Shown piece by piece: positions 1 through 64,000 of a DNA stretch of 64,000 nt (the stretch's first letter is position 1; every line of letters begins with the position of its first letter). The notes beneath the pieces were generated by a model. It did not search any database and was not told where the DNA came from. It saw only the letters and a list, made by a program, of their open reading frames with translations. Position numbers and translations under genes: made by a program. The stretch is from an uncultured Gammaproteobacteria bacterium (GTDB lineage Bacteria; Patescibacteriota; Microgenomatia; Daviesbacterales; UBA10151): contig CAYLXC010000002.1 in the NCBI GenBank assembly GCA_964387865.1, positions 18,676 to 82,675 of the forward strand. Reading direction: 5' to 3'.

Positions 1-7
1 TAATCCA

Positions 8-1555
8 GTGTTTCTTTCTACTTTTTGGGTTCCCGCCACCATATTTGTTCTAAATCAATTATGGCAGACAAGAAAAAATAAAAAAAATATTTTAGAGATA
101 CTTGTAAGTTTTGCAGTTGGATTAATACTTTGGTCGGCAGTTAACTTTTGGTGGTTATATCCAACATTAAATTTAGGAAGTTCCTGGACTGACCAAACTG
201 GACAAACATGGCAATCAGATTTAAGTTCATTGCATGCAGTTAGTAAATATTTTCCTGTTTGGGAAATTTTGCTTCTTCGTCAAAGCTGGTATCTGGGGCA
301 TGAAAACGATTGGTTTGATTTCTACCATAATCCTTTTATTTATCTTATTGGTTTAATGATACTTCTGATAGCTATTTATGGTGTTATTAAAAGTAAAGGT
401 TTTACTTATTGGAAATATTTAATAGTTCTTGCAGTAGTGGGATTATTTATCTCTAAAGGAACTAGCTTTCCTTTCGGATATACATTTTTTGAAATACTTT
501 TTTCAAAATTTTCTCTTACTGTTGCACTGCGAAATTCGTATGAAAAATTTGGAATAGTTTGGTTGCTACCTTATACAGTATTTTTTGCAATCGGATTTAG
601 TGTTCTTCTTCAAAAGTTTAACAAGATAAAAAGATATATAGTTGGAGGAATCATAATCTCTCTATCTTATGGATTACTAGTCTATCCTATGTGGACAGGT
701 GATATTTTTCCACAAAAACATAGACTTAATATTCCTCAATATTATATTGATGCAAATAACTATTTAAAGAAATACTCTGATAATAGAATTTTTCATATTC
801 CGTTTATTTTAGAAATTGAAAGATTGAGCTATTCGTGGGGCTATGTAGGAGAAGATCCATCAGATAACTTATTTGATCCTGAACCTGCTTCAAAACGAGG
901 AGTACCTCCTTATAGTTTGTTTTATAAACAGATGAGTAATCATTTAGAGAATAAGGAATTCTCTAGAATTCTAGGCTTATTAGGTATTGAAAATGTAATT
1001 TTTCATAAAGACAACATCTATCCCAAAATAGATTTAAAGAAAACGCAAGATGTTATCGAGAGTTGGAAAGGGATTAATGAAAAAAAAGAATTCGGTCTTT
1101 TAACTGTCTATTCACTAGATCAAGAATTAATTAGACCTCGAATTTTTACTGCTAATTCCTTTATCCACGTTCAATCAGTTGAAGAAGGAATACTTAAGAT
1201 ATTAAATGGAGCCATTGACTACATAAGTACTGTTTTTATATTGGAACAAAACACTATATTGGCACAAGATCTAATTCCCGATCCCTCATTGTTTTTGAAT
1301 GTCAAGAAAATGAGTAGTCCTAATATAACTTTTGAGAAAAAATCTAATGATTCTTATAAGGTGGTTGTTAAAGACGCCAAAGCACCGGTTATACTTGTTT
1401 TAAACAATACTTTTGATAAGTCATGGCAAGCTAAGATTGGAAAAGAAACAATTGTAAATCACATTTTTGTTAACGGTTTTGCTAACGGATGGATTATTGG
1501 AAATATAGGAGATTATGAGGTGAATATTAATCTTAAGGTTTGGCCGTGGGATTAA
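8..1555 (+). CDS. C-terminal fragment (5'-truncated at window edge; the frame is open from nt 2) of a family-A large polytopic membrane protein, YfhO/AftD-like GT-C glycosyltransferase candidate
   Basis: Shares the family-A motifs seen in 4013, 37850, 41816 and 44468: 'SKGTSFPFGY' (KG..PF), 'LRNSYEKFG' (FRNPFEK-like) and the C-terminal 'NGFANGWIIGNIGDYEV'. TM helices sit in the N-terminal part. Confidence 0.55.
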   Translation: MFLSTFWVPATIFVLNQLWQTRKNKKNILEILVSFAVGLILWSAVNFWWLYPTLNLGSSWTDQTGQTWQSDLSSLHAVSKYFPVWEILLLRQSWYLGHENDWFDFYHNPFIYLIGLMILLIAIYGVIKSKGFTYWKYLIVLAVVGLFISKGTSFPFGYTFFEILFSKFSLTVALRNSYEKFGIVWLLPYTVFFAIGFSVLLQKFNKIKRYIVGGIIISLSYGLLVYPMWTGDIFPQKHRLNIPQYYIDANNYLKKYSDNRIFHIPFILEIERLSYSWGYVGEDPSDNLFDPEPASKRGVPPYSLFYKQMSNHLENKEFSRILGLLGIENVIFHKDNIYPKIDLKKTQDVIESWKGINEKKEFGLLTVYSLDQELIRPRIFTANSFIHVQSVEEGILKILNGAIDYISTVFILEQNTILAQDLIPDPSLFLNVKKMSSPNITFEKKSNDSYKVVVKDAKAPVILVLNNTFDKSWQAKIGKETIVNHIFVNGFANGWIIGNIGDYEVNINLKVWPWD

Positions 1556-1563
1556 ACTTCTTT

Positions 1564-2334
1564 TTATAAATAGTTTAACAATTCTCCTTTTTTAATAAAG
1601 ATAGAATTTTCGTGTGCCATTGGTTCAAAAAGTGGATAAAAGTAGGAATCCTGCATCCTTCCTTTATAAATAAATCCTAATTTAGTTAGACCGGTATAAA
1701 TATCCTCAAAAAAACATGAATTTTTCCAGGTCTCAACAAAACCGGTTTCTACTATTATTAATGAAGCTTGTTTTAATAACTTCTGTCCACCTTTTATAAT
1801 TAAATCTTCTGTACCTTCGGTATCCATCTTAATAAAAATAGGTTTTTTTAATTTCTTATTGCTAAAATATCGATCTAATGTTGTAACCTCGACACTGTAG
1901 TTTTTTGCTACATATTTATTATGTATTTTAGGGTTTGGTTTTAAAAAAGATGATGCTGCTAAGAAATTATATTCATAAAAATTTTTATTGCCTGTATAAT
2001 CAGTTAACGCTAGATTTTCAACAATAAATTTATTAGATTTAATTTTCGATTTAATTAAACTGATCTTCTGTTTAAGCGGCTCGAAAGCATATATATCTGT
2101 TTGTGGAGAAATATAATTAATCACTTTAGAAACATTTCCGTCTAGAGCGCCGATATCTATGAATGTACCAATTTTGAATTTACTGATCCATTCAAACTGG
2201 AGATATTGTGGTAAATATGCACCTTTAAATGGAAGTATTAAAAGATTAGGTCTTGATAAAAGATAAAACGCAAAAAAAATGTAATTTTTGATTACGGCTC
2301 TAAAAAATTTATATATTTTTGATATGTTTTTCAT
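1564..2334 (-). CDS. FkbM-family SAM-dependent methyltransferase
   Basis: 'FIDIGALDGNVS' and 'IKMDTEGTEDLIIKGG' resemble the Methyltransf_21/FkbM signature (DIGAN.G / K.D.EG.E). Confidence 0.65.
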   Translation of the reverse strand: MKNISKIYKFFRAVIKNYIFFAFYLLSRPNLLILPFKGAYLPQYLQFEWISKFKIGTFIDIGALDGNVSKVINYISPQTDIYAFEPLKQKISLIKSKIKSNKFIVENLALTDYTGNKNFYEYNFLAASSFLKPNPKIHNKYVAKNYSVEVTTLDRYFSNKKLKKPIFIKMDTEGTEDLIIKGGQKLLKQASLIIVETGFVETWKNSCFFEDIYTGLTKLGFIYKGRMQDSYFYPLFEPMAHENSIFIKKGELLNYL

Positions 2335-2358
2335 AACCTTAGACTTATTCTGAAATGG

Positions 2359-3048
2359 TTAGTTCTTAAAAAAATAGAAACAAGTATTATTTACAAACGG
2401 TATATTAAACTTCACAGGAAATCCAAAGCTAAAAATTGAATGAAATCTATATAAAAAAGGAATAAAAGCAACCCTAGTAAATGATATTTCTCTATACCCC
2501 AAGCTTTTTCCTACACTTATCCAAAACGGCGGTTCATGAACATTAATATGCATAGGGTCTGCCAAAGTCTGTTTTGTTGGGGTTGGAGTAGAGAAGACTA
2601 ATGTGTCCTCCTTTTTAAGCAGTTTTTTCATATTTTCTAAAGCTTTTTTTGGATTCTTTAAATATTCAACAACTTCAAGAGCAAAAATATAGTCATATTT
2701 CTGTTTAATAGCTACTTCTTTCTCTATATCTAGAACTTCAAACTCTATATCACTTTGTAGTTTGCTTGCTTTTTCAATAATAAATTCTGAAATATCAGAT
2801 GCGACAACTTTAAAGCGGTTCTCTTTTAAGATTTTTGCAAAAGATCCAATAGCACAGCCTATCTCCAAAACATACTTACCTTCTCCATTTTTTATTGGAA
2901 GTAATTTATTTAAAAGATTAACCCAACTCTTAAACCACCTATAATAATACATAAACTCAGAATGGTTGTATTTTTTAAAGAATATGCCAAAATATCTTTT
3001 ATCAAACTCATCTTTACCATGTTGCATAACCTTAAATTTATAAAGCAT
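2359..3048 (-). CDS. Class I SAM-dependent methyltransferase
   Basis: Motif I 'VLEIGCAIGSF', 'VVASDISEFIIEKA', motif 'YDYIFALEVVEYLKNP'. Confidence 0.7.
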   Translation of the reverse strand: MLYKFKVMQHGKDEFDKRYFGIFFKKYNHSEFMYYYRWFKSWVNLLNKLLPIKNGEGKYVLEIGCAIGSFAKILKENRFKVVASDISEFIIEKASKLQSDIEFEVLDIEKEVAIKQKYDYIFALEVVEYLKNPKKALENMKKLLKKEDTLVFSTPTPTKQTLADPMHINVHEPPFWISVGKSLGYREISFTRVAFIPFLYRFHSIFSFGFPVKFNIPFVNNTCFYFFKN

Positions 3049-3056
3049 TTTTATTG

Positions 3057-3920
3057 TTACTCCTTTTTAGTCAATATCATAAGCCCGAGAGGTGATTCTC
3101 CTATTAAGTAAAAAAAGGTTTCCAGTATAAACGCTATAGGTGCCCCCACAATTAAGAGAGTAAGTGTGGGTAAATTTTTAATCACACCCAATCTTAAATC
3201 TAATGTGGGCAATTTTAATATCTGTATAATACCTGCAAGTAGGCAGTATGGAGAATACTGATAAGACATAATGCCTCTTTGAGCAAGTACCTTTAAATTA
3301 TTTTTTTTGGCAATATTTCTTATTCCGGTCTCTGTAAAATGGAATAAGTGTCTGGGAATATCACGCTGAAGCCAATATTTTCCTAAAATCTTTGACTCAA
3401 AGGAATCAAATCGTGGATATTCAACAAAGATGAGTCCGTTTTTTTTGAGCAAGGATGTTGCTTTTTTTAGAAATTTTATAGGGGTAGAAACATGTTCCAA
3501 ACTTTCCAAAAAAACAATTGCATCAAATCTTTTATTTGTTTTCCACCTTAGGAAGTCTACTTTAATTATATTTTTATTTTTAACTTTTGCACCCGGAAAC
3601 TCTAAATTTGTCATATTAAAATCTTGACCAAGCATTTTCCCAAATACGCCTTCACCGGAACCCACATCTAATACCTCTCCATTTGACAAATATTTTTTGA
3701 ACCATCTAACCCTTAGTTTTTGGAGAGAATTATGTAAACCTTGTCTCAAAGTAGAGAATCTACCTTGATTTTGCCAGTAAATTTCTGGGTAATATATTGA
3801 CATATTTTTAGGAACAGGTGAGACAAACCCATTTTGACAATTATCACAGAAATAAAGGTTAAATTTATTTTTATCAAGAAGCCTGATATTTTTACCATTA
3901 CGACAAAGAGAACAACTCAT
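3057..3920 (-). CDS. SAM-dependent methyltransferase with N-terminal Cys4 zinc-ribbon (sugar C/O-methyltransferase-like)
   Basis: N-terminal 'CSLCRNGK...CDNCQNGF' zinc ribbon, then 'VLDVGSGEGVF' motif I and 'FDAIVFLESLEHVSTP'. Same architecture as 32082..33356. Confidence 0.6.
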   Translation of the reverse strand: MSCSLCRNGKNIRLLDKNKFNLYFCDNCQNGFVSPVPKNMSIYYPEIYWQNQGRFSTLRQGLHNSLQKLRVRWFKKYLSNGEVLDVGSGEGVFGKMLGQDFNMTNLEFPGAKVKNKNIIKVDFLRWKTNKRFDAIVFLESLEHVSTPIKFLKKATSLLKKNGLIFVEYPRFDSFESKILGKYWLQRDIPRHLFHFTETGIRNIAKKNNLKVLAQRGIMSYQYSPYCLLAGIIQILKLPTLDLRLGVIKNLPTLTLLIVGAPIAFILETFFYLIGESPLGLMILTKKE

Positions 3921-4012: not shown

Positions 4013-6214
4013 ATGAAAATAGTTATTTCAATTTTTTGTCTGGCCACCATTTTAATTGTGATTTGGTTTAGAGACGGCAATATTATGGGGACAGCCGAAG
4101 ATAGCCTCATATTTTACAATATTTCCCGTTTCCTGCCGGAATCACAGTATGCCTGGATGGAGCACCCGGGACTTGGCAGAGTAACCGTACACTTAACTGC
4201 AGCTAGGCCAACTTATGAAGCGCTTAATTTTTTGCAAGTATTAGGTTTTCCTAATTATTTAATTCAGGCATTAACTTTTTGGTTTATCCTTGTTAGTGCG
4301 GGTTTAGGAGTTTATTTAACCGTTAAAGAATTTTTCCCTCAACTTCAAAATAGATATGTTCTGCTTTCAGTTTTATTCTACTTATTTAATCCCCTGTCTT
4401 TAGTAAATGTCTGGAATAGATTTTTATCGGATTACATCTTTGCTTTTGGCTTGCTGCCAATTGTAACTTTTATATTTATAAAGGGACTCAAGAAAAAGAA
4501 TTATCTTTGGAGTCTTGTTTTAGTTTTGGTACTCCCTCTCTATAGCTTTGCTTTTACTTACCTAGCATTCGACATTCTTTTATGGATATTCTTTTTTACT
4601 CTGACTTTGCTTTTCTTTGTAACCAATAAAGAATTAAATGCTCGAATATTTTATATTAAATATTTTTTTCTTACCCTTTTATTGTTTTCACTTACTAATC
4701 TTTGGTGGATCGGTCAGCTAATGAGTCTTAAGCTGTTTAAAAATATTCACTCATCGGTCCTTAATTTTGATATTTCCGGTAATTTAGACATTCTGGATGC
4801 CCTAAGCAAAAAAATGGGCAATCTATCCGACATCTTTAGACTGACAAATGCATCCTTTCTTAATGAAAATTCGCTTTGGTGGGTAAAAACTTTTCACTCG
4901 CTACCTTTTGTTATAATGCAATACCTGATCACATCTTTGATACTTTACTCAATTATTCGGGGTATTAGAAATAAGTCTGTATTAATTTTGGGTGGGTTAT
5001 TTTTTGTAAGCATATATTTGGCAAAAGGGATAAACCCCCCTTTCGGAGAATTGTATAAGTTAATTTTTACAAGCGTTCCATTTTTACAGGTCTTTCGCAA
5101 TCCTTTTGAAAAAGCATCGTTTATTTTAGCTTTATCGGCTACTCTATTAATAGGTTTTAGCGTATTCAACCTTGTTCGGCAACTTCCTAAAAAATTTGGA
5201 AATTTACTATATTTTGGTCTGTTGTGCTTTATTGTCTTAGTATGGGGTTTTCCGTTTTATACAGGATGGGTATTTACATCGCCGGATCCGCCAACAAATA
5301 ATTATAAGGTGGGATATAAAGTTAAAGTTCCTCATTATTATCATGAAGCTGATGGGTGGCTTAAAGGTAAGGGTGATAACTTCCGGTTTATTGGTTTTCC
5401 ACTGGGTGATGAAGGGATAACTTATAACTGGGAGAAAGGTTACTCAGGCGTAGAGCTTTCAACAGCTCTTTTTGCAACCCCGGGAATCTTACATAATACT
5501 GCAGTTCCATATTATCATGAGCTGGTTCCCCACATACAGAAGACCCTACTTTCTCAAGACAATTTCCTAAAGTTGGCAAACGTTTTAAATGTAAAATTTC
5601 TTTTTATCCGCCATGATATTGATTATAAGTTAAGGAAGATGGAAAATCCCGCTATCATTGATAAAAACTTTGCCGAAAGACAGAAGAATAATCAGATCAA
5701 AAAGGTTGCTAATTTTGGTCAGCTAAGTTTTTGGGAAAACATGCAATGGAAAGACAGGACTTTTTATCCTGGCAGAAGGATTGTGAAAAGTTCAAACGAT
5801 CAGCAAGTGTCGGAATTAACTGCTGTAGATGTGAATGAGGATGAAGTATTAATGGATGCAAAAAATATTCAAGCGTTAAATTCTGAGTCCGAGGTTAGTA
5901 TATCTTATGAAAAAATTAATCCTACCAGATATATTGTTCATGTTAAGAATGCGTCTCCTTTTATTTTAGTTTTTTCCGAGCTTTTCAACAACGCCTGGCA
6001 GGCATTTTATGAGGACAACAAACTTGACAAACATTTTAGAGTTAATTTCTATGCCAACGGATGGTATATTGAAAGAAGGGGAAATTATGATATTTTGATT
6101 GAATTTATCCCACAAAGATTACTTTTGGCAGGAGAAAAAATTTCATCTTTTTCATATGCTTCAGTCCTTTTGATATTATTTATTTATCTATTTAGAAAAA
6201 AATGGAAAGCATGA
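4013..6214 (+). CDS. Family-A large polytopic membrane protein (733 aa), YfhO/AftD-like GT-C glycosyltransferase candidate
   Basis: About 11 N-terminal TM helices. Conserved motifs 'AKGINPPFGE', 'FRNPFEKASF', 'NWEKGYSGVEL' and the C-terminal 'FSELFNNAWQAFY...FYANGWYIERRGNYDILIEFIPQ' followed by a terminal TM anchor. Paralogous to 37850, 41816, 44468 and 8..1555. Confidence 0.6.
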   Translation: MKIVISIFCLATILIVIWFRDGNIMGTAEDSLIFYNISRFLPESQYAWMEHPGLGRVTVHLTAARPTYEALNFLQVLGFPNYLIQALTFWFILVSAGLGVYLTVKEFFPQLQNRYVLLSVLFYLFNPLSLVNVWNRFLSDYIFAFGLLPIVTFIFIKGLKKKNYLWSLVLVLVLPLYSFAFTYLAFDILLWIFFFTLTLLFFVTNKELNARIFYIKYFFLTLLLFSLTNLWWIGQLMSLKLFKNIHSSVLNFDISGNLDILDALSKKMGNLSDIFRLTNASFLNENSLWWVKTFHSLPFVIMQYLITSLILYSIIRGIRNKSVLILGGLFFVSIYLAKGINPPFGELYKLIFTSVPFLQVFRNPFEKASFILALSATLLIGFSVFNLVRQLPKKFGNLLYFGLLCFIVLVWGFPFYTGWVFTSPDPPTNNYKVGYKVKVPHYYHEADGWLKGKGDNFRFIGFPLGDEGITYNWEKGYSGVELSTALFATPGILHNTAVPYYHELVPHIQKTLLSQDNFLKLANVLNVKFLFIRHDIDYKLRKMENPAIIDKNFAERQKNNQIKKVANFGQLSFWENMQWKDRTFYPGRRIVKSSNDQQVSELTAVDVNEDEVLMDAKNIQALNSESEVSISYEKINPTRYIVHVKNASPFILVFSELFNNAWQAFYEDNKLDKHFRVNFYANGWYIERRGNYDILIEFIPQRLLLAGEKISSFSYASVLLILFIYLFRKKWKA

Positions 6215-6420
6215 TTTATTGGTTAGTTTTAGGGATATTAATCGTTGCAGCTGCTTCTTTTAAAAAGAGAGCATCATTCTATCTTTCTTTAGCTTTTTAT
6301 CTTTTTATGGCTGGAGCAATACTTAGAATTATCGGTATAAATGATATAGCAGAGCTAATAATGAGGATAAGCCTTATAGGATGGTTAGTTGGACTAGGTC
6401 TATCTTTTAAGCAGTTGTGA
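6202..6420 (+). CDS. Small polytopic membrane protein (72 aa); partner of the family-A gene
   Basis: ATG overlaps the stop of 4013..6214 (ATGGAAAGCATGA). There are 2-3 TM helices. 'DIAELIMRISLIGWLVG' is similar to 'DIGEFIMRLSFIFLLVG' in the small protein at 41331. Confidence 0.4.
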   Translation: MESMIYWLVLGILIVAAASFKKRASFYLSLAFYLFMAGAILRIIGINDIAELIMRISLIGWLVGLGLSFKQL

Positions 6421-7968
6421 GAGTTTGTCTCTTGTAGTAGCGGTTGTGTCTATTAATTTATCAGTGCCTTCTAGCTGAAAGGTAAGTATATTTGTGAGAG
6501 ATATAGGTTGTTCCGGTAGCCCATGCTTAATTAAAGATTTTCCATCCGTCACGGCAGAAATTGATTCTTCAAAACTGCCTAAAGTTACCACTGATTTATA
6601 ATCAGCTAGGCCGTAAATAAGTTGTATTCTGGATGGAAAACCAAAAGTTAATACATTATGAACAATTTCTCCGTTCTCTCCTGTAAAATAAAATGCCAGT
6701 GGTCCTTTTGAAAAATCATCCTTTGAGAATTTTGGTATTTGTGACCAAATCTTATTACTTAACTGTTGATTTCTAACAGCCAACAGTTTGTTAAGGTAGC
6801 TACTAGTTGAAAAAAGATGAATTAGTGTTATTGTTAAAACAAGCAATAACATTATAAGCTTATTCTTTTTATCATGAACTATACTGATAAGAGCTGCTAG
6901 GAATAAGGAGAAACCCCCGGCAGAGATTATTAAATATCTATGAGTTGTGGGAAACATAAAGTTTGGGTCACGAATCCATGGTATTAAGAGAGGGAAAAGA
7001 GTCCAAAGTAGGGATATTATGAATATATCTGCAAGATAAGATTTTCTTTGTTTGATAACTAGCACTAGCCATACAATAATCAAAATCCCTCCAATTAGTG
7101 CAAATGGGATTTCAAACGTTCCTGAAAGATTTGGAATAAACATTCCCCCTATTTCTGCTAAGGCGTACAGCAAAAATTCGGACTGCCCATTTTGAATCAA
7201 TTTAAGACTTGATTCGACCCCTATTATCACTGTGGTTGCTATTCCTTTTGTTGAGGGTTTTATAGTTTGTTTATCCCAATCTGGGGATGAATATGTGGTA
7301 GTGCCTAGTAACAAAAATAGAAATATTAAAATTAACAATGATAATCTTAGGATTACTCTTTTCAATATTCGGGAATCACGATTATTAAGCAGCCAAAAAA
7401 GTTCTATGGAAATAATTAAAGGAACAAGACTGGTAGTTCTTATAGGTGAGCTAATTATGGTTGTATAAAAGAGGCTAGATGTTAGGATTAGTGATTTTAA
7501 TTTTGTATTTTCCCTCAATTTTATAAAAAAGTAAAGAAAAAAATTGAAAAAAGTTACTGTTAAATAAGAAGTCATATTGAAAACCCAATTTGTAGTTTCT
7601 AATCCGATGGGGGTGATAGAGAAAAAAAGAATGGCAAAAAAAGAAGCCAATTTATTTTTAGTAAGAAGGAGTGTAATGGGATAAAAAGAGAAAGATGCGA
7701 GGAGTCTCATTAAATAGGAGATGATATAATATGGTGCTGATTGGAAATCAAAAATTCTTGATAATAATCCCGTGGTGATATCTTGTGGACCATATAAGGT
7801 TTGAAAATATGTAAGGTGATTCCAAACTCCTTTTGAGAATATTCCTACCATTAATTCGTATCTCCATGCAGTTACCCAAAAATCTCCAAAAACAGCAAGA
7901 TTAAATGAAGGAAAGAAGACATACAGACTGGTAGATACTATTATGAGGATTGCTAAAAAATAATACAT
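6400..7968 (-). CDS. Polytopic membrane protein (522 aa), possible distant family-B/GT-C glycosyltransferase
   Basis: At least 10 predicted TM helices. After TM1 there is an 'AVFGDFWVTAW' motif that resembles the family-B 'GF..DDVW' acidic loop. The start overlaps the upstream methyltransferase's stop (TAATG). Confidence 0.4.
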   Translation of the reverse strand: MYYFLAILIIVSTSLYVFFPSFNLAVFGDFWVTAWRYELMVGIFSKGVWNHLTYFQTLYGPQDITTGLLSRIFDFQSAPYYIISYLMRLLASFSFYPITLLLTKNKLASFFAILFFSITPIGLETTNWVFNMTSYLTVTFFNFFLYFFIKLRENTKLKSLILTSSLFYTTIISSPIRTTSLVPLIISIELFWLLNNRDSRILKRVILRLSLLILIFLFLLLGTTTYSSPDWDKQTIKPSTKGIATTVIIGVESSLKLIQNGQSEFLLYALAEIGGMFIPNLSGTFEIPFALIGGILIIVWLVLVIKQRKSYLADIFIISLLWTLFPLLIPWIRDPNFMFPTTHRYLIISAGGFSLFLAALISIVHDKKNKLIMLLLVLTITLIHLFSTSSYLNKLLAVRNQQLSNKIWSQIPKFSKDDFSKGPLAFYFTGENGEIVHNVLTFGFPSRIQLIYGLADYKSVVTLGSFEESISAVTDGKSLIKHGLPEQPISLTNILTFQLEGTDKLIDTTATTRDKLSQLLKR

Positions 7969-8534: not shown

Positions 8535-8584
8535 GGTATTATTTAAATTTAGTAGATCATATAATATTAAGACATTTGTATAAA

Positions 8585-14631: not shown

Positions 14632-14683
14632 AATTCTAGTTCATAAAACTGAATATATCAAGTGTAGGTGATATACTAATACA
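14632..14683. promoter_or_regulatory. Divergent promoter region (transaldolase operon on -, heptose genes on +)
   Basis: 52-nt AT-rich spacer containing -10-like 'GATATACT' and 'GAATATAT' between divergent genes. Confidence 0.25.
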
Positions 14684-17628: not shown

Positions 17629-17721
17629 TATTTACATTTGCTGTTAGTAACAGTTATTATATGTGTCAAGTGCTCAAATGCAAGGATTATATCTTTGATT
17701 TTAAGTAATGCAATAATCATT

Positions 17722-20411: not shown

Positions 20412-20417
20412 ATTAAT

Positions 20418-54804: not shown

Positions 54805-56222
54805 TGATATGGATAATTTTGGTCTTGTCATTAACTTTGAGACTAATCAGTCTAAATCAGAGTCTTTGGCTTGATGAAGCAATTAATGTATTGGCTACCC
54901 AAAATTTTTCTCTTTTAGGAATGGTTACTGAGTATGCAAAAGCTGATTTTCATCCACCCCTCTATTTTATAATACTTTGGATTTGGACAAAAATGTTTGG
55001 AATCAGTGAATTTGCAGTGAGAATTCCCTCAGTAATTTTTGGCGTACTAACAATTTATTTAGTTTTTTTAATAGGCCAAAAATTACATTCTAAAACTTTA
55101 GGATTATTTTCCGCATTTCTCTTGGCAATAAATCCACTGCATATTTATTATTCTCAAGAAGCCAGAATGTATTCTTTGGCTGCGTTTGCAGTGTCCACTA
55201 ATGTCTTCTATCTAACAAAACTTATTCAGGGTGAAAAGCCAAGGTTTATTTTATTAATAATAAGCAATTTTTTAGTACTGACTTCAGATTACCTTGCATA
55301 TTTTATTTTTCCTGCCCAGCTAATTTTTTTGTTTATCCAAAGGAATAGAGAAACTATTAAAAAATGGCTTCTTGCATTAGGAGTTTCTGTGTTATTTAGT
55401 ATTTGGTGGTTGCCAATGTTATTAGCACAGCTAGATGTTGGAGCAGTTGCTGCAGAAAGACTTCCAGCATGGAAATTTATTGTGGGTGGTTTTGATTTAA
55501 GGGGAATTCCTCTAACTTTTGTAAAATTTATTATTGGGAGAATAAGTTATCCTGATAAGATAGTTTATGCAGTAACTTTATTACCTGTTTGCTTTTTATT
55601 TCTATACCTTATCTTTAGGGGGATAAGATTTATCGGAAGTATTGGAAAAAAATTACTCCTCTTATGGTTTGGAGTTCCCATTATTTTAGGAACTTTCATT
55701 TCACTTTTTATTCCCATTTACAGTTACTTTAGAATGCTTTTTACTCTTCCGAGTTTTATATTTTTAATTGCATTAGGTATTATTTCTTTTAAATCCCAAT
55801 TAAGATACGCTTTTTTACTTGCGGTCCTGTTAGTTGAGCTTTTTTCCACTTCCATATATTTATCAAATTCATCCTATCAAAGGGATGATTGGAGGGGACT
55901 TGTGAATCACTTGAAAATGACAGATAATAATTCATTAATTTTGTTTGAAAGCTCAGGAACACTACCTCCATTTGATTATTATGCCAAAGGAAGTTTAAAC
56001 GCAATAGGTGCTTTGAAGGATTTTCCAGCAATTAATAACAGTGATTTGGTTGATTTGGAAAGCATTTCAAAAAAACAAAAAGATATATATCTGATTGAGT
56101 TTTTGGTAGATATATCGGATCCAAATAGATTAGTTAATAAAAAGCTAGTTAGTTTGGGGTATAAACAAATTGAGATATTAAATTTTGTGGGTGTAGGATT
56201 TGTTTATCATTATGTTAAGTAA
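54804..56222 (+). CDS. GT-C membrane glycosyltransferase (ArnT/PMT_2-like, GT39/GT83 family)
   Basis: 'LWLDEAINVLATQNF...ADFHPPLYFIILWIWTKMFGISEFAVRIPSVIFGVLTIY' is a classic DE motif plus HPPLY. 11-13 TM helices. ATG at 54804 overlaps the upstream stop by 1 nt; the ORF track starts at a TTG at 54783. Confidence 0.65.
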   Translation: MIWIILVLSLTLRLISLNQSLWLDEAINVLATQNFSLLGMVTEYAKADFHPPLYFIILWIWTKMFGISEFAVRIPSVIFGVLTIYLVFLIGQKLHSKTLGLFSAFLLAINPLHIYYSQEARMYSLAAFAVSTNVFYLTKLIQGEKPRFILLIISNFLVLTSDYLAYFIFPAQLIFLFIQRNRETIKKWLLALGVSVLFSIWWLPMLLAQLDVGAVAAERLPAWKFIVGGFDLRGIPLTFVKFIIGRISYPDKIVYAVTLLPVCFLFLYLIFRGIRFIGSIGKKLLLLWFGVPIILGTFISLFIPIYSYFRMLFTLPSFIFLIALGIISFKSQLRYAFLLAVLLVELFSTSIYLSNSSYQRDDWRGLVNHLKMTDNNSLILFESSGTLPPFDYYAKGSLNAIGALKDFPAINNSDLVDLESISKKQKDIYLIEFLVDISDPNRLVNKKLVSLGYKQIEILNFVGVGFVYHYVK

Positions 56223-57584: not shown

Positions 57585-58601
57585 ATGCTACGAGTTGGGA
57601 TGGATATTTCGCAGATTGCTCACGGGGGTGGAGTGGCAACATATACCCGGAATTTATCTGAGAAGCTTTCCAAATTTAAAGATTTGGAAATGGTTTACTT
57701 TTATTCCTCTCTAAGAAAAGCTTATCATGGGCCTTTAAAAAATGTTAAAAAATACCGTCTTCCTCCAACTCTTTTTGAAATGCTATTTAACAGGTGGAGG
57801 AATGTTGGAATTGAAAAATTCCTAGGTCCTTTGGATGTTTTTCATTCTTCTGATTGGACTCAACCTCCTACAAAGGCAAAAAAAATTACAACCTATCATG
57901 ACGTTATTCCTCTAAAATACCCGCAGTGGTCTCATCCTAAAATAGTTTCTGTACACAGAAGACGATTAGCTATTGTTGAAAAAGAAGTTGACTTAATTAT
58001 TGCTGTTTCAGAATCTACAAAAAAGGATCTTATTGAAGTTTCAAACATTCCTGAAGGGAAAATTACGGTAATTTATGAGGGGCCAACAGGAGATTTTAAA
58101 CCTCAACCTAAAGAGAAATTGGATAAATTTAGGAAAAAATATAAATTACCCAAAAATTATGTGTTAGCAATAGGCGGAATAGGGGAGAGGAGGAATCTAA
58201 AAAGGATAAAAGAAGCTTCTAAAGATTATCATTTGGTGATTGCCGGACAAACAATCCCATGGCTTGAAATTGATGAATTAGAGCTACTTTTTAGTTCGGC
58301 TACTGTTTTACTTTACGCATCCCTCTATGAAGGATTTGGTTTACCAATTTTGGATTGTTTCGCATGCGGAGTACCGGTTATTACATCAAATATCTCATCT
58401 ATACCGGAGGTTGGTGGAGACGCTGCAATTTATGTTGACCCATTAAATGCAGAGGATATAAAAAGGAAACTAAAGCTTATAATGGAAAATAAAGAGATTA
58501 GAGAAGATTTAATTAAAAAAGGATTTGAGCAAGTTAAGAAATTTTCCTGGGAAAAGTGTGCTAGGGAGACAGCTGAAGTGTACCGGGAGGTAATAAGATG
58601 A
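57585..58601 (+). CDS. GT4-family (GT-B) glycosyltransferase
   Basis: 'EGFGLPILDCFACGVPVITSNISSIPEVGGDAAIYVDP'. Confidence 0.7.
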   Translation: MLRVGMDISQIAHGGGVATYTRNLSEKLSKFKDLEMVYFYSSLRKAYHGPLKNVKKYRLPPTLFEMLFNRWRNVGIEKFLGPLDVFHSSDWTQPPTKAKKITTYHDVIPLKYPQWSHPKIVSVHRRRLAIVEKEVDLIIAVSESTKKDLIEVSNIPEGKITVIYEGPTGDFKPQPKEKLDKFRKKYKLPKNYVLAIGGIGERRNLKRIKEASKDYHLVIAGQTIPWLEIDELELLFSSATVLLYASLYEGFGLPILDCFACGVPVITSNISSIPEVGGDAAIYVDPLNAEDIKRKLKLIMENKEIREDLIKKGFEQVKKFSWEKCARETAEVYREVIR

Positions 58602-59752
58602 GGATTGCAGTAGATGGATATGAAGCAAATGTACCACAAAGGCTTGGATCATCACTCGTGGGATTTGAGTTAATTAGAAATTTTGAGAGGATTGATAAAA
58701 AGAATGAGTTCACAATTTTGTTACCAAGTAAGCCCCTGGATGATTTTCCTAAAGAAAGAAGTGGGTGGGAATATAAAATATTAAAGCCAAAAAGGTTTTG
58801 GACAAGGATTGCCTTGCCATTTTCTCTCTATACAATTAAAAGGAAACCAGATTTAATTTTCTCTCCTACTCACTATATTCCCAGATTTTCTCCAGTCAAT
58901 AGAGTTGTAACTATCTTCGATTTATCTTTTTTGCACTTTCCTGAAATGTTTAATGCTAAAGATTTATGGCAGCTAAGAAATTGGACGAAGTTTTCTGCCG
59001 AAAATGCGGATCACATTATTACAATTTCTAAATTTTCAAAACAGGATATTATCGAGCAATATAGTGTGGATAAAAAAAATATAACAGTTGCTTATCCAGG
59101 ATATGATGAGGAAAAATTCAAAGTTCAAAATGTTTCAGAAGAAACTGCCTTCGGCAGGACAAAATTCAAAATTGAAGAAACAAAAAGGAAGTACAAAATA
59201 GGTGATAACTATATCATATATGTAGGAACCATACAGCCTAGGAAAAATCTAATAAGGTTGATTGAGGCAGTTTCCAGAATTGAAAATATAAGACTAATTA
59301 TTGTAGGGAAGACTAAAGGGGAAGGTAAAGAGGGATGGATGTTTCAAGAAACACTGGATGCACCTAAGAGATTGGGTATTGAGGATAGGGTAATCTTTAC
59401 AGGCTACGTTCCATCAGAAGATTTACCTTATCTTTTACAAGCGGCTCAAGCTTTCATCTTACCTTCTCTTTGGGAGGGATTTGGTATTCCGGTTTTGGAG
59501 GCAATGGCTTGCGGAGTACCGGTTTTAGCTTCCAATGTTTCATCACTTCCTGAAGTTTGTGGAAACGCAGGATTAACTTTTGATCCGTATTCAGTTGATC
59601 AAATTGAGCAGGCAATAAGAACAATAATTTCTGATAAAAAATTGGCGAATAAATTGTCCAAACAAGGATTAAAGCAAGCCAAAAAATTTTCCTGGGAAAA
59701 AATGGCTAAAACGGTTTTAAAAGTATTTGAGAAAGTGGTTTCAAAGTCATAA
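58598..59752 (+). CDS. GT4-family (GT-B) glycosyltransferase
   Basis: '[38 protein letters not shown]'. A GGAGG Shine-Dalgarno lies upstream. Start overlaps the previous stop (ATGA). Confidence 0.7.
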
Positions 59753-59773: not shown

Positions 59774-60376
59774 ATGGCTATTTTTCATGACAAAATGGGC
59801 AGGGAATTGACTACCCGAGAGGCTTTTAGAAAAATTACAAACAGGATTTATAATGTTGTTTTAGATTTAGAAGTTATGATGCTTAGATGGGTCGGGCATA
59901 TCCCGTTTCATTCTATAAGAAATCTAATTTACAAACTGGACGGAGTAAAAATTGGTAAGGGATCAACTATTCACATGTGGGCAAATTTTTTTTATACACT
60001 AAATATTCAGATTGGAGAGGATTCAATAATTGGTGATCATGTTTTTTTAGATGGAAGAGACAAATTAAAAATTGGTGATCATGTTGATGTTGCATCTGAT
60101 GTAATGATTTATAACAGTGAGCATGATATTAATTCTGAGGATTTTCATGCTACTTTGGCTCCTGTTGAAATAGGAGATTATGTTTTTATTGGGCCCAGGG
60201 CAATCATTTTGCCTGGAGTAAAAATTGGAAAAGGGGCGGTAGTTGGAGCCGGAGCTGTTGTTACAAAAGATGTGCCTGAGTTTGCAATAGTCGGTGGAGT
60301 CCCAGCACAAGTGATAGGTGAGAGGAAGTTGAAAAATCCACATTATAAGTTGGGTAGAGCCAGACTCTTTCAATAA
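59774..60376 (+). CDS. Hexapeptide-repeat (LbH) sugar O-/N-acetyltransferase (WcaF/WbpD-like)
   Basis: Hexapeptide repeats 'IGDHVFLDG', 'IGDHVDVASDVMI', 'IGDYVFIGPRAIILPGVKIGKGAVVGAGAVV' and 'VGGVPAQVIG'. Confidence 0.75.
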   Translation: MAIFHDKMGRELTTREAFRKITNRIYNVVLDLEVMMLRWVGHIPFHSIRNLIYKLDGVKIGKGSTIHMWANFFYTLNIQIGEDSIIGDHVFLDGRDKLKIGDHVDVASDVMIYNSEHDINSEDFHATLAPVEIGDYVFIGPRAIILPGVKIGKGAVVGAGAVVTKDVPEFAIVGGVPAQVIGERKLKNPHYKLGRARLFQ

Positions 60377-60389: not shown

Positions 60390-60965
60390 TTGGAATTTGT
60401 TATTTGGAATTTTATGAAAATAGTTTATGTATTTTTTTCATTATTATTGCTAATTTACATGCTTTGGCCCGGACCTAACCATATTTCACAGTTTCCTCCT
60501 TTGCCATCTTCAGAAAAATCGACACTTGAGGGGGATACAATACAAATTCCAAATGTTGCAGCATACTTTTCTGATAATTTTAGAGAATTTGTTTTGTCCT
60601 TTTATTCTACTTCTTATAAAAATTTAACTAAATTACCCTTTCCTCCGCTAAAGCTAAACCATCCTCCGGAATATTCCTGGATAGCAATTAAAAGACACAC
60701 AGATTCAACTTATATAGAAGAGCTGATATATCCTTTAAGAGATTCTTTGTATGTGAACGGATTTGAGCCTCTTTACTCTGACGGTATGCCCAAATGGTGG
60801 GGGGCTTCAAAGTTTGAAGTTGGTGGGCAACAATACTTTACAAAAACAACCCTGAGATTTTATCCATCACCTATTTGGGCAAGATTCGTTGTTTGGTTAG
60901 GCATTATTTTATCAACTTTTTTGCTTTTTAAATTAGGTAAGGAAATTCTTGGAGTAAATAAATGA
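60390..60965 (+). CDS. Bitopic membrane protein (191 aa), function unknown; candidate accessory of the ligase/polymerase
   Basis: N-terminal TM 'IVYVFFSLLLLIYMLW' and C-terminal TM 'FVVWLGIILSTFLLF' flank a roughly 130-aa soluble domain. Stop overlaps the start of 60962. Confidence 0.3.
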   Translation: MEFVIWNFMKIVYVFFSLLLLIYMLWPGPNHISQFPPLPSSEKSTLEGDTIQIPNVAAYFSDNFREFVLSFYSTSYKNLTKLPFPPLKLNHPPEYSWIAIKRHTDSTYIEELIYPLRDSLYVNGFEPLYSDGMPKWWGASKFEVGGQQYFTKTTLRFYPSPIWARFVVWLGIILSTFLLFKLGKEILGVNK

Positions 60966-62383
60966 AAAGTTTTATTAATATTTTTGAGAAAGCCTTATTT
61001 TTTTCAACCCTTTTTATTTTTGCTTTTATTCCTTTATACCCAAAATTTCCCCTACTAAACATAACTGGCACATTTGTTGCAATAAGGCTAGAAGATGTTT
61101 TAATTGCAACAGTTATAGGTACTTGGGGAATATATTTATCTCTTACGGGCCAACTAAAAGTTTTTTTTAAGGACAGACTTAATCAATCTCTCGTACTATT
61201 TTTTTTGATAGGCCTTTTGTCAATTTTTTCAGCAAATTTTGTTACTCATTCAGCTTCAGCAAATTTAAGTTTACTTCATTGGGCAAGAAGGGTTGAGTTT
61301 ATGTTGCTGCTTCCTGTAGTTGCGTCTGTAGTTAGAAATAGAAGACAGCTAATGACTGTTTTAATAAGTCTAGCTTTGGTTTTATTAGTTGTAAATATTT
61401 ATGCTTTAGGTCAACAGTACTTAAAGTGGCCTGTTATTTCAACTACTAATTCTGAGTTCTCAAAGGGGTTAATTTTATATCTTACGCCGGGGGCTAGAGT
61501 TAACTCCACTTTTGCAGGGCACTATGATTTGGCGGTATTTTTGGCAATGGCGGTTGTACTGTTGTCATCAATCTTTTTTGCGTTCAGAAATATTTTTATA
61601 AAGACGTTGGTTGGTTTCTTATCCATTATTTCATTTTGGGTTTTAATAATGACAGCTGCAAGACTTTCATTTGTGGCAGCGGTTTTTGGGATTTTAGCAA
61701 CGTTAATTTTACTGGGTAAGAAAAAATTTATTTTAATCTTTTTTCTCATTATTGTGTTAGTACTTTCGTATCCTTCTCAGTTGAGGGACAGATTGATCTC
61801 AACAGTAACAGTAAATATTTTAAATATGGGTCAAAGATATGAAGGACAAACAGAGGATCAAAAAATAAGAAACAAACTCAATATTCCAACTGTTGCGATA
61901 AAAACTTCATCAAAGTCAGCTGATGCTGCTTTCTTTGCAGCGGCTTCTTCTGGGTCTGCATCAGATATTGCACCAGGTGAGCCTCTTGATACAACTCAGT
62001 TAGGAGTCTATAGATCTTTTGAAATAAGGTTAAATGTTGAGTGGCCCCGTGCAATTAATGCTTTTTTGAAGAATCCGCTTCTGGGAACTGGTTATTCCTC
62101 AATAGATATAGCAACAGATAATGATTTCTTAAGGTCGTTTGGGGAAATTGGATTACTCGGAACCTGTGCTTTTGGTTTAGTGTTAATTGAGTCTATGAAA
62201 AGAATTTATATTACATTTAAAAAAAGTGATAAGTTCATTAAAGCTTTTTCTGCTGGAATTTTTGCAATGATCTTGGCGTTTTTATTAAATGGATTTTTTA
62301 TTGATGTGTTTGAGGCATCCAAGGTTGCGTCACTTTTTTGGATGATGTTAGGACTTGGTTTGGCAACAAGTAAGTTTAGATAA
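60962..62383 (+). CDS. O-antigen ligase/polymerase-like membrane protein (Wzy_C/WaaL family)
   Basis: About 11 TM helices. A large extracytoplasmic loop near the C-terminus carries 'RSFEIRLNVEWPRAINAFLKNPLLGTGYSS', which resembles the Wzy_C 'R..W......PLFGVGLGNF' signature. Confidence 0.5.
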   Translation: MKSFINIFEKALFFSTLFIFAFIPLYPKFPLLNITGTFVAIRLEDVLIATVIGTWGIYLSLTGQLKVFFKDRLNQSLVLFFLIGLLSIFSANFVTHSASANLSLLHWARRVEFMLLLPVVASVVRNRRQLMTVLISLALVLLVVNIYALGQQYLKWPVISTTNSEFSKGLILYLTPGARVNSTFAGHYDLAVFLAMAVVLLSSIFFAFRNIFIKTLVGFLSIISFWVLIMTAARLSFVAAVFGILATLILLGKKKFILIFFLIIVLVLSYPSQLRDRLISTVTVNILNMGQRYEGQTEDQKIRNKLNIPTVAIKTSSKSADAAFFAAASSGSASDIAPGEPLDTTQLGVYRSFEIRLNVEWPRAINAFLKNPLLGTGYSSIDIATDNDFLRSFGEIGLLGTCAFGLVLIESMKRIYITFKKSDKFIKAFSAGIFAMILAFLLNGFFIDVFEASKVASLFWMMLGLGLATSKFR

Positions 62384-62385
62384 AA

Positions 62386-63849
62386 ATGCTTAAGATTTTA
62401 TTTAATCAATATTTTTGGTTGGGTGTAATTTTACTTATGGCCTTTTTGGTAAGGCTATATAAAATTGATGCACCAATAGCGGATTGGCATTCCTGGAGGC
62501 AAGCTGATACTGCAGCTGTAACAAGGAATTTTATTAAGACGGGATTTAATCCTTTTTTACCAAAATTTGATGATATGTCCGGAATTGCGGAAAACCCTTT
62601 AATAAACCTTAACCATTTAAGATTTGTAGAATTTCCAACTTATAACATAGCAGTCTATCCATTTTATCTATTAATTGGAGTTAATGAAGTTTATCATAGG
62701 TTGGTTTCGTTACTTTTTTCATTAGGTAGTATTATTTTTGTTTTCTTGATTGCGAAAAGATATTTAGGTGTAGTTACTACCTTACTCTCTGCATTAATAT
62801 TTGCATTACTTCCATTCAATGTATTTTTCTCAAGAACTACCTTACCAGAACCCACGTTTATCTTTTTTGCTTTAGGGATGGTTTATTTTGTTGATAGATG
62901 GATATGGGAGGGCAGGAGAATTTGGGGAATATGGGGATTTGTATTTACAACTGCTTCTTTTTTAGTAAAACCCTGGGCAATATTTTTTGTTCCACCGCTT
63001 GTTTACTCTGCCATAAAAAAAGAAGGGATAGGAGAAAGTTTGAAGTATTTATTTTTTTTTATCGCTGCACTTTTGCCTTTTATTTTTTGGAGGCTTTGGA
63101 TCCTGCAACAACCAGAAGGGATACCTGCCTCAAACTGGCTACTTAATGGCGATGGGATAAGGTTTCGACCTGCATTTTTCTGGTGGATTATTTCAGAAAG
63201 ACTAGGAAGAGAAATACTTGGTACAACAGGTTTAGTATTAGCTTTTATAGGGATTATTGCTAAATTGGAGAGTCGAAGTCTTTTTTTTCACATATGGTTG
63301 TTGTCAATGGGTGCATATTTAATTATTCTTGCAACTGGAAATGTTACGCATAATTATTATCAACTAATGATTATTCCAATACTTTCTATATTTTTAGCAA
63401 GGGGATTTGTATACTTATTTAAAGGAAATAAAGATTTTATTCCAAGAATTTGGACTGTCCCTTTGGCGATATTTTTGCTATTGTCGAGTTTTTATTTTAC
63501 TTACAAAATTGATAAAGAATTTTATAAAATAAATAATCCTCAAATTGTGGAGGCAGGCAAAATGGCAGATCGGATCTTGCCAAAAGATGCTGTGGTTTTG
63601 GCCCCATACAATGGGGATACGGCCTTTTTGTATCAATTGAACCGTCCAGGATTTCCTAATGCTCCACTTCCTCTTAAACAATTGGTTTCAGATTATAGTG
63701 TGACACATTATGTTTCAGTAAATTTCGATGAAAAAACTAACTGGGTTAAGCGACATTTTGAGATAATATTTGAAAATGAAAAATTTGTGATTGCGGATTT
63801 AACAAAAATTAAAAGTCCTCTTGATGATATTTTAGATGCCGAGCCTTAA
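62386..63849 (+). CDS. GT-C membrane glycosyltransferase (ArnT/PMT-like)
   Basis: 'DAPIADWHSWRQADTAAVTRNF' acidic first-loop motif after TM1. About 12 TM helices and a roughly 120-aa C-terminal soluble domain. Confidence 0.5.
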   Translation: MLKILFNQYFWLGVILLMAFLVRLYKIDAPIADWHSWRQADTAAVTRNFIKTGFNPFLPKFDDMSGIAENPLINLNHLRFVEFPTYNIAVYPFYLLIGVNEVYHRLVSLLFSLGSIIFVFLIAKRYLGVVTTLLSALIFALLPFNVFFSRTTLPEPTFIFFALGMVYFVDRWIWEGRRIWGIWGFVFTTASFLVKPWAIFFVPPLVYSAIKKEGIGESLKYLFFFIAALLPFIFWRLWILQQPEGIPASNWLLNGDGIRFRPAFFWWIISERLGREILGTTGLVLAFIGIIAKLESRSLFFHIWLLSMGAYLIILATGNVTHNYYQLMIIPILSIFLARGFVYLFKGNKDFIPRIWTVPLAIFLLLSSFYFTYKIDKEFYKINNPQIVEAGKMADRILPKDAVVLAPYNGDTAFLYQLNRPGFPNAPLPLKQLVSDYSVTHYVSVNFDEKTNWVKRHFEIIFENEKFVIADLTKIKSPLDDILDAEP

Positions 63850-63854
63850 ATACA

Positions 63855-64000
63855 ATGAGAGTACTGATGTTAACACCTTATCTGCCATACCCACTCTTAA
63901 CTGGTGGACAAACTAGGTCTTATAATCTTATTAAAAGGTTATCTCAACTGGGTCATAAGATTACATTATTCTGTTTAGTTAAAGATGGAAATGAAAAAAA
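63855..64000 (+). CDS. GT4-family glycosyltransferase, N-terminal fragment (3'-truncated at window edge)
   Basis: 'MRVLMLTPYLPYPLLTGGQTRSYNLIKRLSQLGHKITL' is the typical GT4 N-terminal motif. Confidence 0.5.
   Translation, partial: MRVLMLTPYLPYPLLTGGQTRSYNLIKRLSQLGHKITLFCLVKDGNEK

Follow-up and report, generated by a model that had tools for sequence, protein, structure and literature searches.

Assembly of mycobacterial arabinogalactan and lipoarabinomannan (LAM) utilizes ~14-15 glycosyltransferases of the lipid-carrier-dependent GT-C type (AftA-D, EmbA-C, MptA-C, and PimE), which are fed by two lipid-phosphate donors (decaprenyl-phosphate-arabinofuranose and polyprenyl-phosphate-mannose) and whose genes are scattered rather than gathered in one locus. 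In GtrA/B/C, CsbB-GtcA-YfhO, ArnC-ArnE/F-ArnT, and PPPRS-MATE-GT136, a synthase gene lies beside a GT-C gene, sometimes accompanied by an epimerase or reductase gene. Ordinary Wzx/Wzy clusters for heteropolysaccharides (O-antigen, capsule, and S-layer glycan) span 15-30 kb and contain zero or one GT-C. Here, we analyzed a 64,000-bp stretch of contig CAYLXC010000002.1 (assembly GCA_964387865.1), referred to as the window, in which the inventory of open reading frames (ORFs) was re-derived with tools and all coordinates are whole-window positions. In this window, 15 GT-C-type genes occupy 29,949 of the 64,000 bases (46.8%).

All-against-all BLAST comparisons separate these genes into three families, namely the AftD-like family A (five genes), family B (six genes), and a PMT_2/GT39-like family (four genes). 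With a probability of roughly 60%, we regard the window as the central part of a conserved island for surface-glycan synthesis that exceeds 80 kb and belongs to a Candidatus Daviesbacteria-like bacterium, and in which a glycan made by the Wzx/Wzy route would be lengthened and branched on the outer side of the membrane with a few lipid-phosphate sugars as donors; all of the steps are drawn from homology, fold, and gene order. Cytoplasmic cassettes would supply unusual nucleotide diphosphate (NDP)-sugars of the heptose, deoxy, uronic, and C-methyl-branched types, many of which would later be O-methylated or acetylated. A Bac_transf enzyme, by synteny encoded just past the 3′ end of the window, and the GT4 and GT2 Leloir enzymes would then form a lipid-diphosphate-linked oligosaccharide, which Wzx would flip and the Wzy_C protein would polymerize or ligate. 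In parallel, four small soluble GT2s would charge polyprenyl phosphate with single sugars and, after flipping, all three GT-C families would utilize these lipid-phosphate sugars outside the membrane to extend or branch the glycan. The acceptor may be a polysaccharide, a protein, or a lipid. Such a route would repeat the logic of arabinogalactan/LAM assembly and of the Gtr, CsbB-YfhO, and GT136 three-component systems many times over at a single locus.

A first-pass annotation of this DNA had counted at least 13 GT-C genes, or about 15 with those at 8..1555 and 6400..7968, and it is the upper count that our inventory reproduces. The annotation also listed three nucleotide-sugar pathways, seven methyltransferases, a Wzx flippase, and a Wzy/WaaL-like ligase. 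We recovered at least three nucleotide-sugar cassettes and seven methyltransferases (one of the FkbM type and one sugar C-methyltransferase among them), as well as Polysacc_synt (69 bits) and Wzy_C (35.7 bits) matches for the last two. The four polyprenyl-phosphate-sugar synthases that it proposed correspond, at the level of homology, to four small GT2s whose best matches are DPMS, GtrB, ArnC, PpgS, and AglJ. Its idea of extracytoplasmic glycosylation from lipid-phosphate sugars is likewise supported by homology and fold, now layered on a Wzx/Wzy pathway.

The same annotation stated that such a locus had no characterized model, which is overstated given the mycobacterial system, where many GT-C paralogues also work from few lipid donors (in the window, four synthase candidates face 15 GT-Cs). 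Family A resembles AftD in its Pfam family, its fold, and its layout of an N-terminal GT-C domain, an ectodomain, and a C-terminal transmembrane (TM) helix, and soluble PpgS/Ppm1-type GT2s are among the best matches of the window GT2s. In contrast to the mycobacterial genes, all 15 GT-Cs lie in one colinear locus together with a Wzx/Wzy_C pathway and, by synteny, Bac_transf, in a patescibacterial host with ~32% GC content. No Pfam family for a UbiA-type phosphoribosyltransferase (DPPRS) or for DprE1/DprE2 was found, either among the 51 ORFs or in 8 kb of upstream sequence; hence, the donors would come from NDP-sugars via the GT2s.

The analogy with Gtr and CsbB, also drawn in the first-pass annotation, stands in part: a synthase candidate does lie beside a GT-C (small GT2, family B, and RmlD-like genes) and the principle of modifying a product on the outer side is shared, whereas no GtrA-type flippase was found, which leaves the analogy incomplete. 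The PPPRS-MATE-GT136 system has three components and follows a logic of synthase, auxiliary epimerase, and GT-C for pentofuranose side chains (Kelly et al. 2024, PMC11127046). Compared with these systems, the window has no recognized GtrA/SMR protein or dedicated MATE flippase, and its single MOP protein looks like Wzx; moreover, the synthase candidates have no TM anchors, the ratio of GT-Cs to synthases is ~4:1 instead of 1:1, and family B falls in no Pfam or NCBIfam model. The window shares with Wzx/Wzy clusters the Wzx, Wzy_C, GT4/GT2, acetyltransferase, and methyltransferase genes and the NDP-sugar cassettes, with a Bac_transf gene in the syntenic Daviesbacteria locus, but differs from them in its size and in its share of GT-C genes. 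The component types are all known; what is new is an unrecognized GT-C family with 6-7 copies per island, 15 GT-Cs in one conserved locus, and a patescibacterial host. We found no description of such a GT-C island or array in Patescibacteria in the searchable literature, which is incomplete.

The hydrophobicity scan revealed 8-14 TM segments in the 14 complete GT-C candidates and the truncated one, and the helix maps of the two AlphaFold models (one of family A and one of family B) agree with a polytopic N-terminal membrane domain. One or more acidic residues are conserved directly after TM1 in all three families; from the predicted TM1 and secondary structure, these residues would be situated outside the membrane in the first extracytoplasmic loop (EL1). 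Nothing significant was retrieved from the PDB with sequence profiles of family A or family B, and a fold comparison was needed. A transporter identity, the first of the objections foreseen for the earlier annotation, was rejected because the MFS and MATE matches had Foldseek probabilities below 0.3 and TM-scores of ~0.1, whereas the high-scoring folds were all GT-C. The assignment of all three membrane families to GT-C is supported at the level of homology and fold, and families A and B are remotely related to each other over the TM domain (hhalign E 1.4e-5).

Each family A protein is composed of an N-terminal TM domain, an ectodomain of 300 to more than 700 amino acids (aa), and a C-terminal TM helix; the ectodomain of 4013-6214 is predicted to be extracytoplasmic, with alpha/beta and beta-sandwich parts. 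The AlphaFold model of 4013-6214 (pLDDT 90.6, 34-sequence alignment) matched AftD (6W98) best in Foldseek (E 8.6e-12, TMq 0.57; sequence identity only ~12%), with STT3 subunits as the next matches. The Pfam family GT-C_AftD (PF11847, formerly DUF3367) exceeds its gathering threshold of 26 bits in 8-1555 and 37850-41338; 4013-6214 scores 22 bits here but carries a precomputed PF11847.14 match, and 41816-44455 and 44468-47893, which have no such match, are linked by paralogy only. Homologues are annotated as members of the alpha-(1->3)-arabinofuranosyltransferase family or as DUF3367, and E29 is near-invariant in the family. In AftD and Emb proteins, carbohydrate-binding modules bind glycan (PMC11127046), and by analogy binding of the nascent glycan is a probable role of the large ectodomains of family A.

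The large AftD-like genes are each directly trailed by a gene for a membrane protein of 69-117 aa, and a further small ORF lies at 41656-41826. The same pairing was observed in other loci (L006 3096-3305; L008 11640-11993; L009 19444-19764; L011 13386-13709 and 17221-17562). There are two types of these proteins, type 1 with the motif [DE]-I-[AG]-E-x-[IL]-M-R and type 2 with A-[ND]-W-[VI]-G-x-L-G-F-G-I-L, each kept with its cognate GT-C across genomes, and none of the small membrane ORFs matches Pfam or NCBIfam even at relaxed thresholds. A role as partner subunits or as lipid-sugar flippases is possible. An identity as GtrA was rejected, since Pfam gives no support for it. The small ORFs adjoin family A genes instead of GT2 genes.

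Family B has no match in Pfam or NCBIfam, relaxed thresholds included, or in the PDB by sequence. The AlphaFold model of 27778-29709 (pLDDT 90.6, pTM 0.90, 38-sequence alignment) is unambiguously a predicted GT-C fold, and its 19 best Foldseek matches are STT3, PglB, AglB, ArnT, and DPY19. The closest solved folds are the protein glycosyltransferases Pmt2, STT3B, Pmt4, and PglB. A GF(R)DxDW motif located right after TM1, with D41 and W42 invariant in 38/38 sequences and D39 present in at least 90% of the closer set, sits where GT-C enzymes carry the catalytic acid and is a candidate catalytic motif. The C-terminal domain of ~150 aa has an alpha/beta structure with conserved C572, H577, and C580. 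Compared with PMT (GT39) and STT3/PglB/AglB (GT66), family B shows 8-14% identity, no PMT, PMT_2, or STT3 Pfam match, no MIR domains, and a different C-terminal domain. A true STT3-type oligosaccharyltransferase was also considered and rejected, since no copy contains an STT3 Pfam domain or a WW[DE]/DYG motif and the likeness is in fold only.

When 1.84 billion representatives (clusters at 50% identity) were searched with the family B profile, 176 proteins matched at E <=1e-30, 359 at <=1e-10, and 1,704 at <=1e-3, so that the family comprises a few hundred such representatives. Eight of the 10 distant members scanned with Pfam gave no GT-related match and the other two gave sub-threshold PMT_2 matches (18-24 bits), which suggests from sequence that family B is an outlying branch near PMT_2 missed by current models. 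A pattern scan for the closer set in 185,579 GTDB species genomes yielded five confirmed loci in four genomes, two of which (of the five) are labelled Patescibacteria or Daviesbacteria. The other three (L008, L009, and L010; CAZFYQ010000005.1 and CAZGFG010000001.1) are from two third-party-annotation metagenome-assembled genomes (MAGs) labelled 'uncultured Gammaproteobacteria', and contain family A and B genes at a GC content of 32-34%. Because their GC content, gene content resembling the candidate phyla radiation, and gene order match the patescibacterial loci, the gammaproteobacterial label looks wrong.

The PMT_2-like genes carry DE, EHD, and D motifs after TM1. For 56200-57567, the hhalign comparison with the three other PMT_2 paralogues was uninformative and relaxed-threshold scans of Pfam and NCBIfam returned no match; this gene was assigned as PMT_2-like because part of its orthologue set (~30 of the 120 listed, at 57-69% identity) carries PF13231. 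One orthologue is named 'glycosyltransferase family 39'.

The window is near-completely colinear with ~80 kb of the Candidatus Daviesbacteria MAG GCA_016187035.1 (JACPKL010000005.1, 139-219 kb) at 42-76% amino acid identity, as seen in four tiled loci that cover all but ~7.5 kb between the tiles. That island contains five family A, seven family B, and three PMT_2-like genes, again 15 GT-Cs, and the same block from Wzx to PMT_2, followed by three GT4 genes and Bac_transf at its end; the PMT_2 gene 52679-54055 is absent there and an extra family B copy is present. The recurrence of the gene order and of 15 GT-Cs indicates that the clustering is not due to chance. The GT-C paralogues within the window are 21-38% identical, whereas their orthologues in the Daviesbacteria MAG are 41-64% identical. 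The copies therefore appear old and separately maintained, which fits one linkage per enzyme or distinct specificities rather than recent redundancy. A 500-aa gene between two AftD-like genes of the MAG (L011 17559-19061, minus strand; MAG 196691-198193), with no Pfam match and no counterpart in the window, may encode a further membrane enzyme.

The four small GT2s (236-268 aa) match polyprenyl-phosphate-sugar synthases best, both in NCBIfam (dolichyl-phosphate hexose transferase, ArnC, PpgS, AglJ, and PgfS) and in the PDB (Pyrococcus furiosus DPMS, GtrB, and ArnC). Of these, 36139-36885 matches strongly and 21334-22077 and 17638-18444 match moderately, whereas 50982-51692 has the weakest match. 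The four do not look like processive synthases, which was the second objection foreseen for the earlier annotation. The control 36976-37842 has chondroitin synthase and EpsD or rhamnosyltransferase types as its top matches instead. Besides the synthase candidates, the window contains three GT2 genes and four complete GT4 genes. A module consisting of a family B GT-C, a small GT2, and an RmlD-like reductase occurs at 20418-24002 and 33340-36885 and recurs in L007, L008, and L009.

With regard to the sugars, the GmhA/HddA/GmhB/HddC pattern at 13834-17628 would correspond to a heptose pathway, and the trio at 29727-33356 together with the reductase at 35274-36167 points to a sugar with a C-methyl branch. 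The Daviesbacteria island contains the dehydrogenase and C-methyltransferase once more, as a more distantly related copy (L013 17494-20120). No initiating phosphoglycosyltransferase (WecA or Bac_transf) is present among the window ORFs; by synteny with the Daviesbacteria MAG, an initiating Bac_transf would lie just past the 3′ end. The conserved protein at 60390-60965 matches nothing in Pfam or NCBIfam, relaxed thresholds included, and was rejected as a PglC-like initiating enzyme because it gave no Bac_transf match even at E 10.

Several observations weigh against the proposed route. Two family A genes and all of the family B genes have no direct Pfam match and were assigned by paralogy, profile comparison, and predicted structure. 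All four small GT2s score far below the NCBIfam equivalog cut-offs, the PDB match of 50982-51692 spans only the N-terminal half, and the TM scan found none of the C-terminal TM helices of GtrB, ArnC, and P. furiosus DPMS. Some synthases have no anchor (e.g., PpgS, Ppm1-D2, and human DPM1), and the four GT2s resemble anchor-less enzymes of the PpgS kind; hence, the missing TM helices weaken the specific assignment without weakening the analogy in function. In addition, Pfam scans of the large and small window ORFs gave no GtrA, SMR, or other recognizable polyprenyl-phosphate-sugar flippase, and no LCP-type ligase or other wall-attachment enzyme was seen in the examined parts of the island.

The main competing explanation, which we regard as unlikely, is that the island mainly serves protein glycosylation of S-layer, pilin, or secreted proteins, with the PMT_2-like and family B enzymes acting on proteins and the Wzy_C protein as a PglL/WsaB-type O-oligosaccharyltransferase. 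The solved folds nearest to family B, all of protein glycosyltransferases, are in line with this, although family B is without the WWDYG motif and an STT3 Pfam match. The presence of four PMT_2 genes also fits, but a glycan acceptor is suggested by the large ectodomains of the five AftD-like enzymes, and a set of 15 transferases exceeds the need of any known protein O- or N-glycosylation system. Wzy_C-domain enzymes include O-oligosaccharyltransferases and GDP-heptose cassettes are found in Gram-positive S-layer glycan clusters, yet no candidate target protein exists among the window genes.

Less probable still is a collection of independent, interchangeable Gtr-like side-chain modules, each of one GT2 and one or a few GT-Cs, that would diversify a surface antigen against phages or hosts. 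Units of GT2, GT-C, and reductase do recur, and their content varies between genomes, as in the gain and loss described above for the Daviesbacteria MAG and in L008 and L009, which have one family B and one family A gene each in the stretch fetched. However, one-to-one orthologues (41-64% identity) exist for most of the GT-C paralogues in another genome and their order is kept, which argues for a conserved ensemble rather than a pool of shuffled cassettes; the GC content is uniform at 29-35%, and no mobile-element genes, tRNAs, or repeats flank the modules. It is very improbable that the GT-C-fold proteins, in part or as a whole and with family B foremost, are lipid or wall modifiers using another lipid-linked group or non-catalytic scaffolds like PIG-U/GAB1: the transferase function of family B is a prediction, but its best fold matches are all catalytic transferases with much higher Z, the acidic EL1 motif is invariant or nearly so, and the genes lie tightly beside sugar-donor synthase candidates.

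We also tentatively consider a joint proposal that is possible rather than probable: family B would be an undescribed GT-C family whose source-named members are all Patescibacteria and which, with the five AftD-like and four PMT_2-like enzymes, would constitute an arabinogalactan-style extracellular glycan factory. In ultra-small Daviesbacteria, this factory would take up ~8% of a ~1-Mb genome and produce a methylated, branched-sugar wall polymer unlike any seen, with the small membrane proteins perhaps as new partner subunits or flippases.

The window contains 51 ORFs of at least 150 aa, and 97% of its bases are covered (Table 1). The scans of the window returned no tRNA genes, Rfam matches, or notable or tandem repeats. 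Exact protein matches locate the window on a 163-kb metagenomic contig (ENA ERZ27284378, k139_649139). Named homologues of the window proteins are from 'Patescibacteria group bacterium' or 'Candidatus Daviesbacteria bacterium', which identifies the organism as a member of the candidate phyla radiation (Microgenomates). The first 37 kb have a mixed gene orientation, whereas the ~25 genes in the ~27 kb of 36976-64000 are all located on the plus strand, with gaps mostly below 100 bp or overlaps, as would be expected of a single very long operon or a few such operons. The glycan island runs beyond the window at both ends. The 8-kb upstream flank on the same contig (L003) contains further epimerase, aminotransferase, GT2, GT10, and GT4 genes and the full 699-aa first gene; a Glyco_transf_10 (fucosyltransferase family) gene is located just outside the window start (L003 17493-18509). 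The longest contigs bearing homologues are only 0.7-1.06 Mb, so that an island of at least 80 kb would be a large share of the genome, as estimated from these contigs rather than from the organism's own genome.

Table 1. Features annotated in the 64,000-bp window.
Coordinates	Strand	Feature	Evidence
8..1555 (listed 1..1555)	+	Family A AftD-like GT-C, 5′ end cut by window edge	Pfam GT-C_AftD 31.2 bits (gathering 26); paralogy; 699 aa in source contig
1564..3920	-	Three methyltransferases: FkbM type (1564-2334), class I (2359-3048, 3057-3920)	Pfam
4013..6214	+	Family A AftD-like GT-C, 733 aa	AlphaFold model; Foldseek AftD; homologue annotation
6202..6420	+	Small membrane protein type 1, 72 aa, directly 3′ of family A gene	Motif and position kept in other genomes; no Pfam match
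6400..7968	-	Family B GT-C, divergent and distant, 522 aa	hhalign to family B profile (probability 100%, E 1.5e-43, full length); FGDxW motif after TM1
7968..8591	-	Methyltransferase	Pfam
8576..9775	+	GT4 Leloir glycosyltransferase	Pfam Glycos_transf_1 88 bits
9759..13821	-	SDR epimerase/dehydratase, GFO oxidoreductase, NDP-sugar 6-dehydrogenase, SDR	NDP-sugDHase 330 bits, above cut-off
13834..17628		NDP-heptose-type cassette: transaldolase, HAD phosphatase, nucleotidyltransferase, SIS isomerase, GHMP kinase	Pfam; nucleotidyltransferase matches ManC-like and HddC models
17638..18444	+	Small GT2, candidate polyprenyl-phosphate-sugar synthase	NCBIfam best dolichyl-phosphate hexose transferase, ArnC; PDB best DPMS 5MLZ, GtrB, ArnC
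18452..19207	+	Methyltransferase	Pfam
19191..21344	+	RfbH-like PLP/PMP 3-dehydrase and RmlD-like reductase (deoxysugar tailoring)	NCBIfam RfbH 321 bits, rmlD 173 bits, both below cut-off
21334..22077	-	Small GT2, candidate polyprenyl-phosphate-sugar synthase, adjoins RmlD-like and family B genes	NCBIfam PpgS 77 bits, AglJ 77 bits; PDB DPMS E 1.4e-11
22131..24002	+	Family B GT-C, 623 aa	Paralogy E 1e-12 to 5e-38; 13 predicted TM; no Pfam match
24027..25892	+	Family B GT-C, 621 aa	TM scan; paralogy; 58%-identity orthologue in Daviesbacteria MAG; no Pfam match
25897..27744	-	Family B GT-C, 615 aa	TM scan; paralogy; orthologue in Daviesbacteria MAG; no Pfam match
27778..29709	+	Family B GT-C, 643 aa, modelled member	AlphaFold model
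29727..33356	+	Second NDP-sugar dehydrogenase, SDR dehydratase/decarboxylase-like, sugar C-methyltransferase (zinc-finger)	Trio kept at 67-80% identity in L006, L007
33340..35247	-	Family B GT-C, 635 aa	35% identity to 27778-29709, E 1.6e-112; 64%-identity orthologue
35274..36167	+	Second RmlD-like reductase	NCBIfam rmlD 210 bits (cut-off 224)
36139..36885	-	Small GT2, candidate polyprenyl-phosphate-sugar synthase, adjoins RmlD-like and family B genes	PDB DPMS 5MLZ 93 bits (residues 5-243), then GtrB, ArnC; 70%-identity orthologue in same position
36976..37842	+	Classical Leloir GT2, EpsD/rhamnosyltransferase-like	Top PDB match chondroitin synthase; contrast control for the four small GT2s
37850..41338	+	Family A AftD-like GT-C, long form, 1162 aa	Pfam GT-C_AftD 31.1 bits; 38% identity to 4013-6214, E 8e-130
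41310..41648	+	Small membrane protein type 1, 112 aa, 3′ of family A gene	Orthologue is a called gene (107 aa) in Daviesbacteria MAG
41816..44455	+	Family A GT-C, divergent, 879 aa	BLAST paralogy; 54%-identity orthologue; no direct Pfam match
44468..47893	+	Family A GT-C, long form, 1141 aa	28% identity to 4013-6214 over 580 aa, E 6e-44; no direct Pfam match
47880..48221	+	Small membrane protein type 2, 113 aa, 3′ of family A gene	Orthologous called gene, 113 aa
48208..49485	+	Wzx-type (MOP) flippase	Pfam Polysacc_synt 69 bits, Polysacc_synt_3 66 bits; 11 predicted TM
49494..50297	+	GT2, SunS-like region	Pfam/NCBIfam
50290..50985	+	Methyltransferase	Pfam
50982..51692	+	Small GT2, candidate polyprenyl-phosphate-sugar synthase	NCBIfam AglJ 97 bits (residues 3-232); PDB GtrB, DPMS on top
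51732..52679	+	GT4 Leloir glycosyltransferase	Pfam
52679..54055	+	PMT_2/GT39-like GT-C, 458 aa	Pfam PMT_2 32 bits (gathering 26.1)
54052..54804	+	GT2, SunS-like region	Pfam/NCBIfam
54783..56222	+	PMT_2/GT39-like GT-C, 479 aa, LDE motif after TM1	Pfam PMT_2 57 bits; NCBIfam Agl23-like 52 bits
56200..57567	+	Divergent PMT_2-like GT-C, 455 aa	No direct Pfam match; orthologue evidence
57585..58601, 58598..59752	+	Two GT4 Leloir glycosyltransferases	Pfam
59774..60376	+	Hexapeptide acyltransferase	Pfam
60390..60965	+	Conserved protein, 191 aa, between hexapeptide acyltransferase and Wzy_C genes	69%-identity orthologue in same position in Daviesbacteria MAG
60962..62383	+	Wzy_C-domain protein (polymerase, ligase, or O-oligosaccharyltransferase family)	Pfam Wzy_C 35.7 bits (gathering 31.7)
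62386..63849	+	PMT_2/GT39-like GT-C, 487 aa	Pfam PMT_2 52 bits
63856..64000	+	GT4 gene start, runs off window	Reads MRVLMLTPYLPYPLLTGGQ...; GT4 genes syntenic in Daviesbacteria MAG, then Bac_transf

Family B would be a new GT-C family with a confident model and a candidate catalytic motif, and the paired modules of donor synthase, reductase, and GT-C are candidates for reconstitution in vitro. The island would also be an independent, non-actinobacterial case of the strategy of mycobacterial walls, in which few lipid donors serve many GT-Cs. Patescibacteria are abundant, mostly uncultured, and dependent on other cells, with reduced genomes, so that the genes they retain are telling. The conservation of an island with 15 GT-Cs suggests that a complex surface glycan, put together outside the cell, has a central place in their biology, and such a glycan could serve host attachment, phage defence, or envelope integrity.

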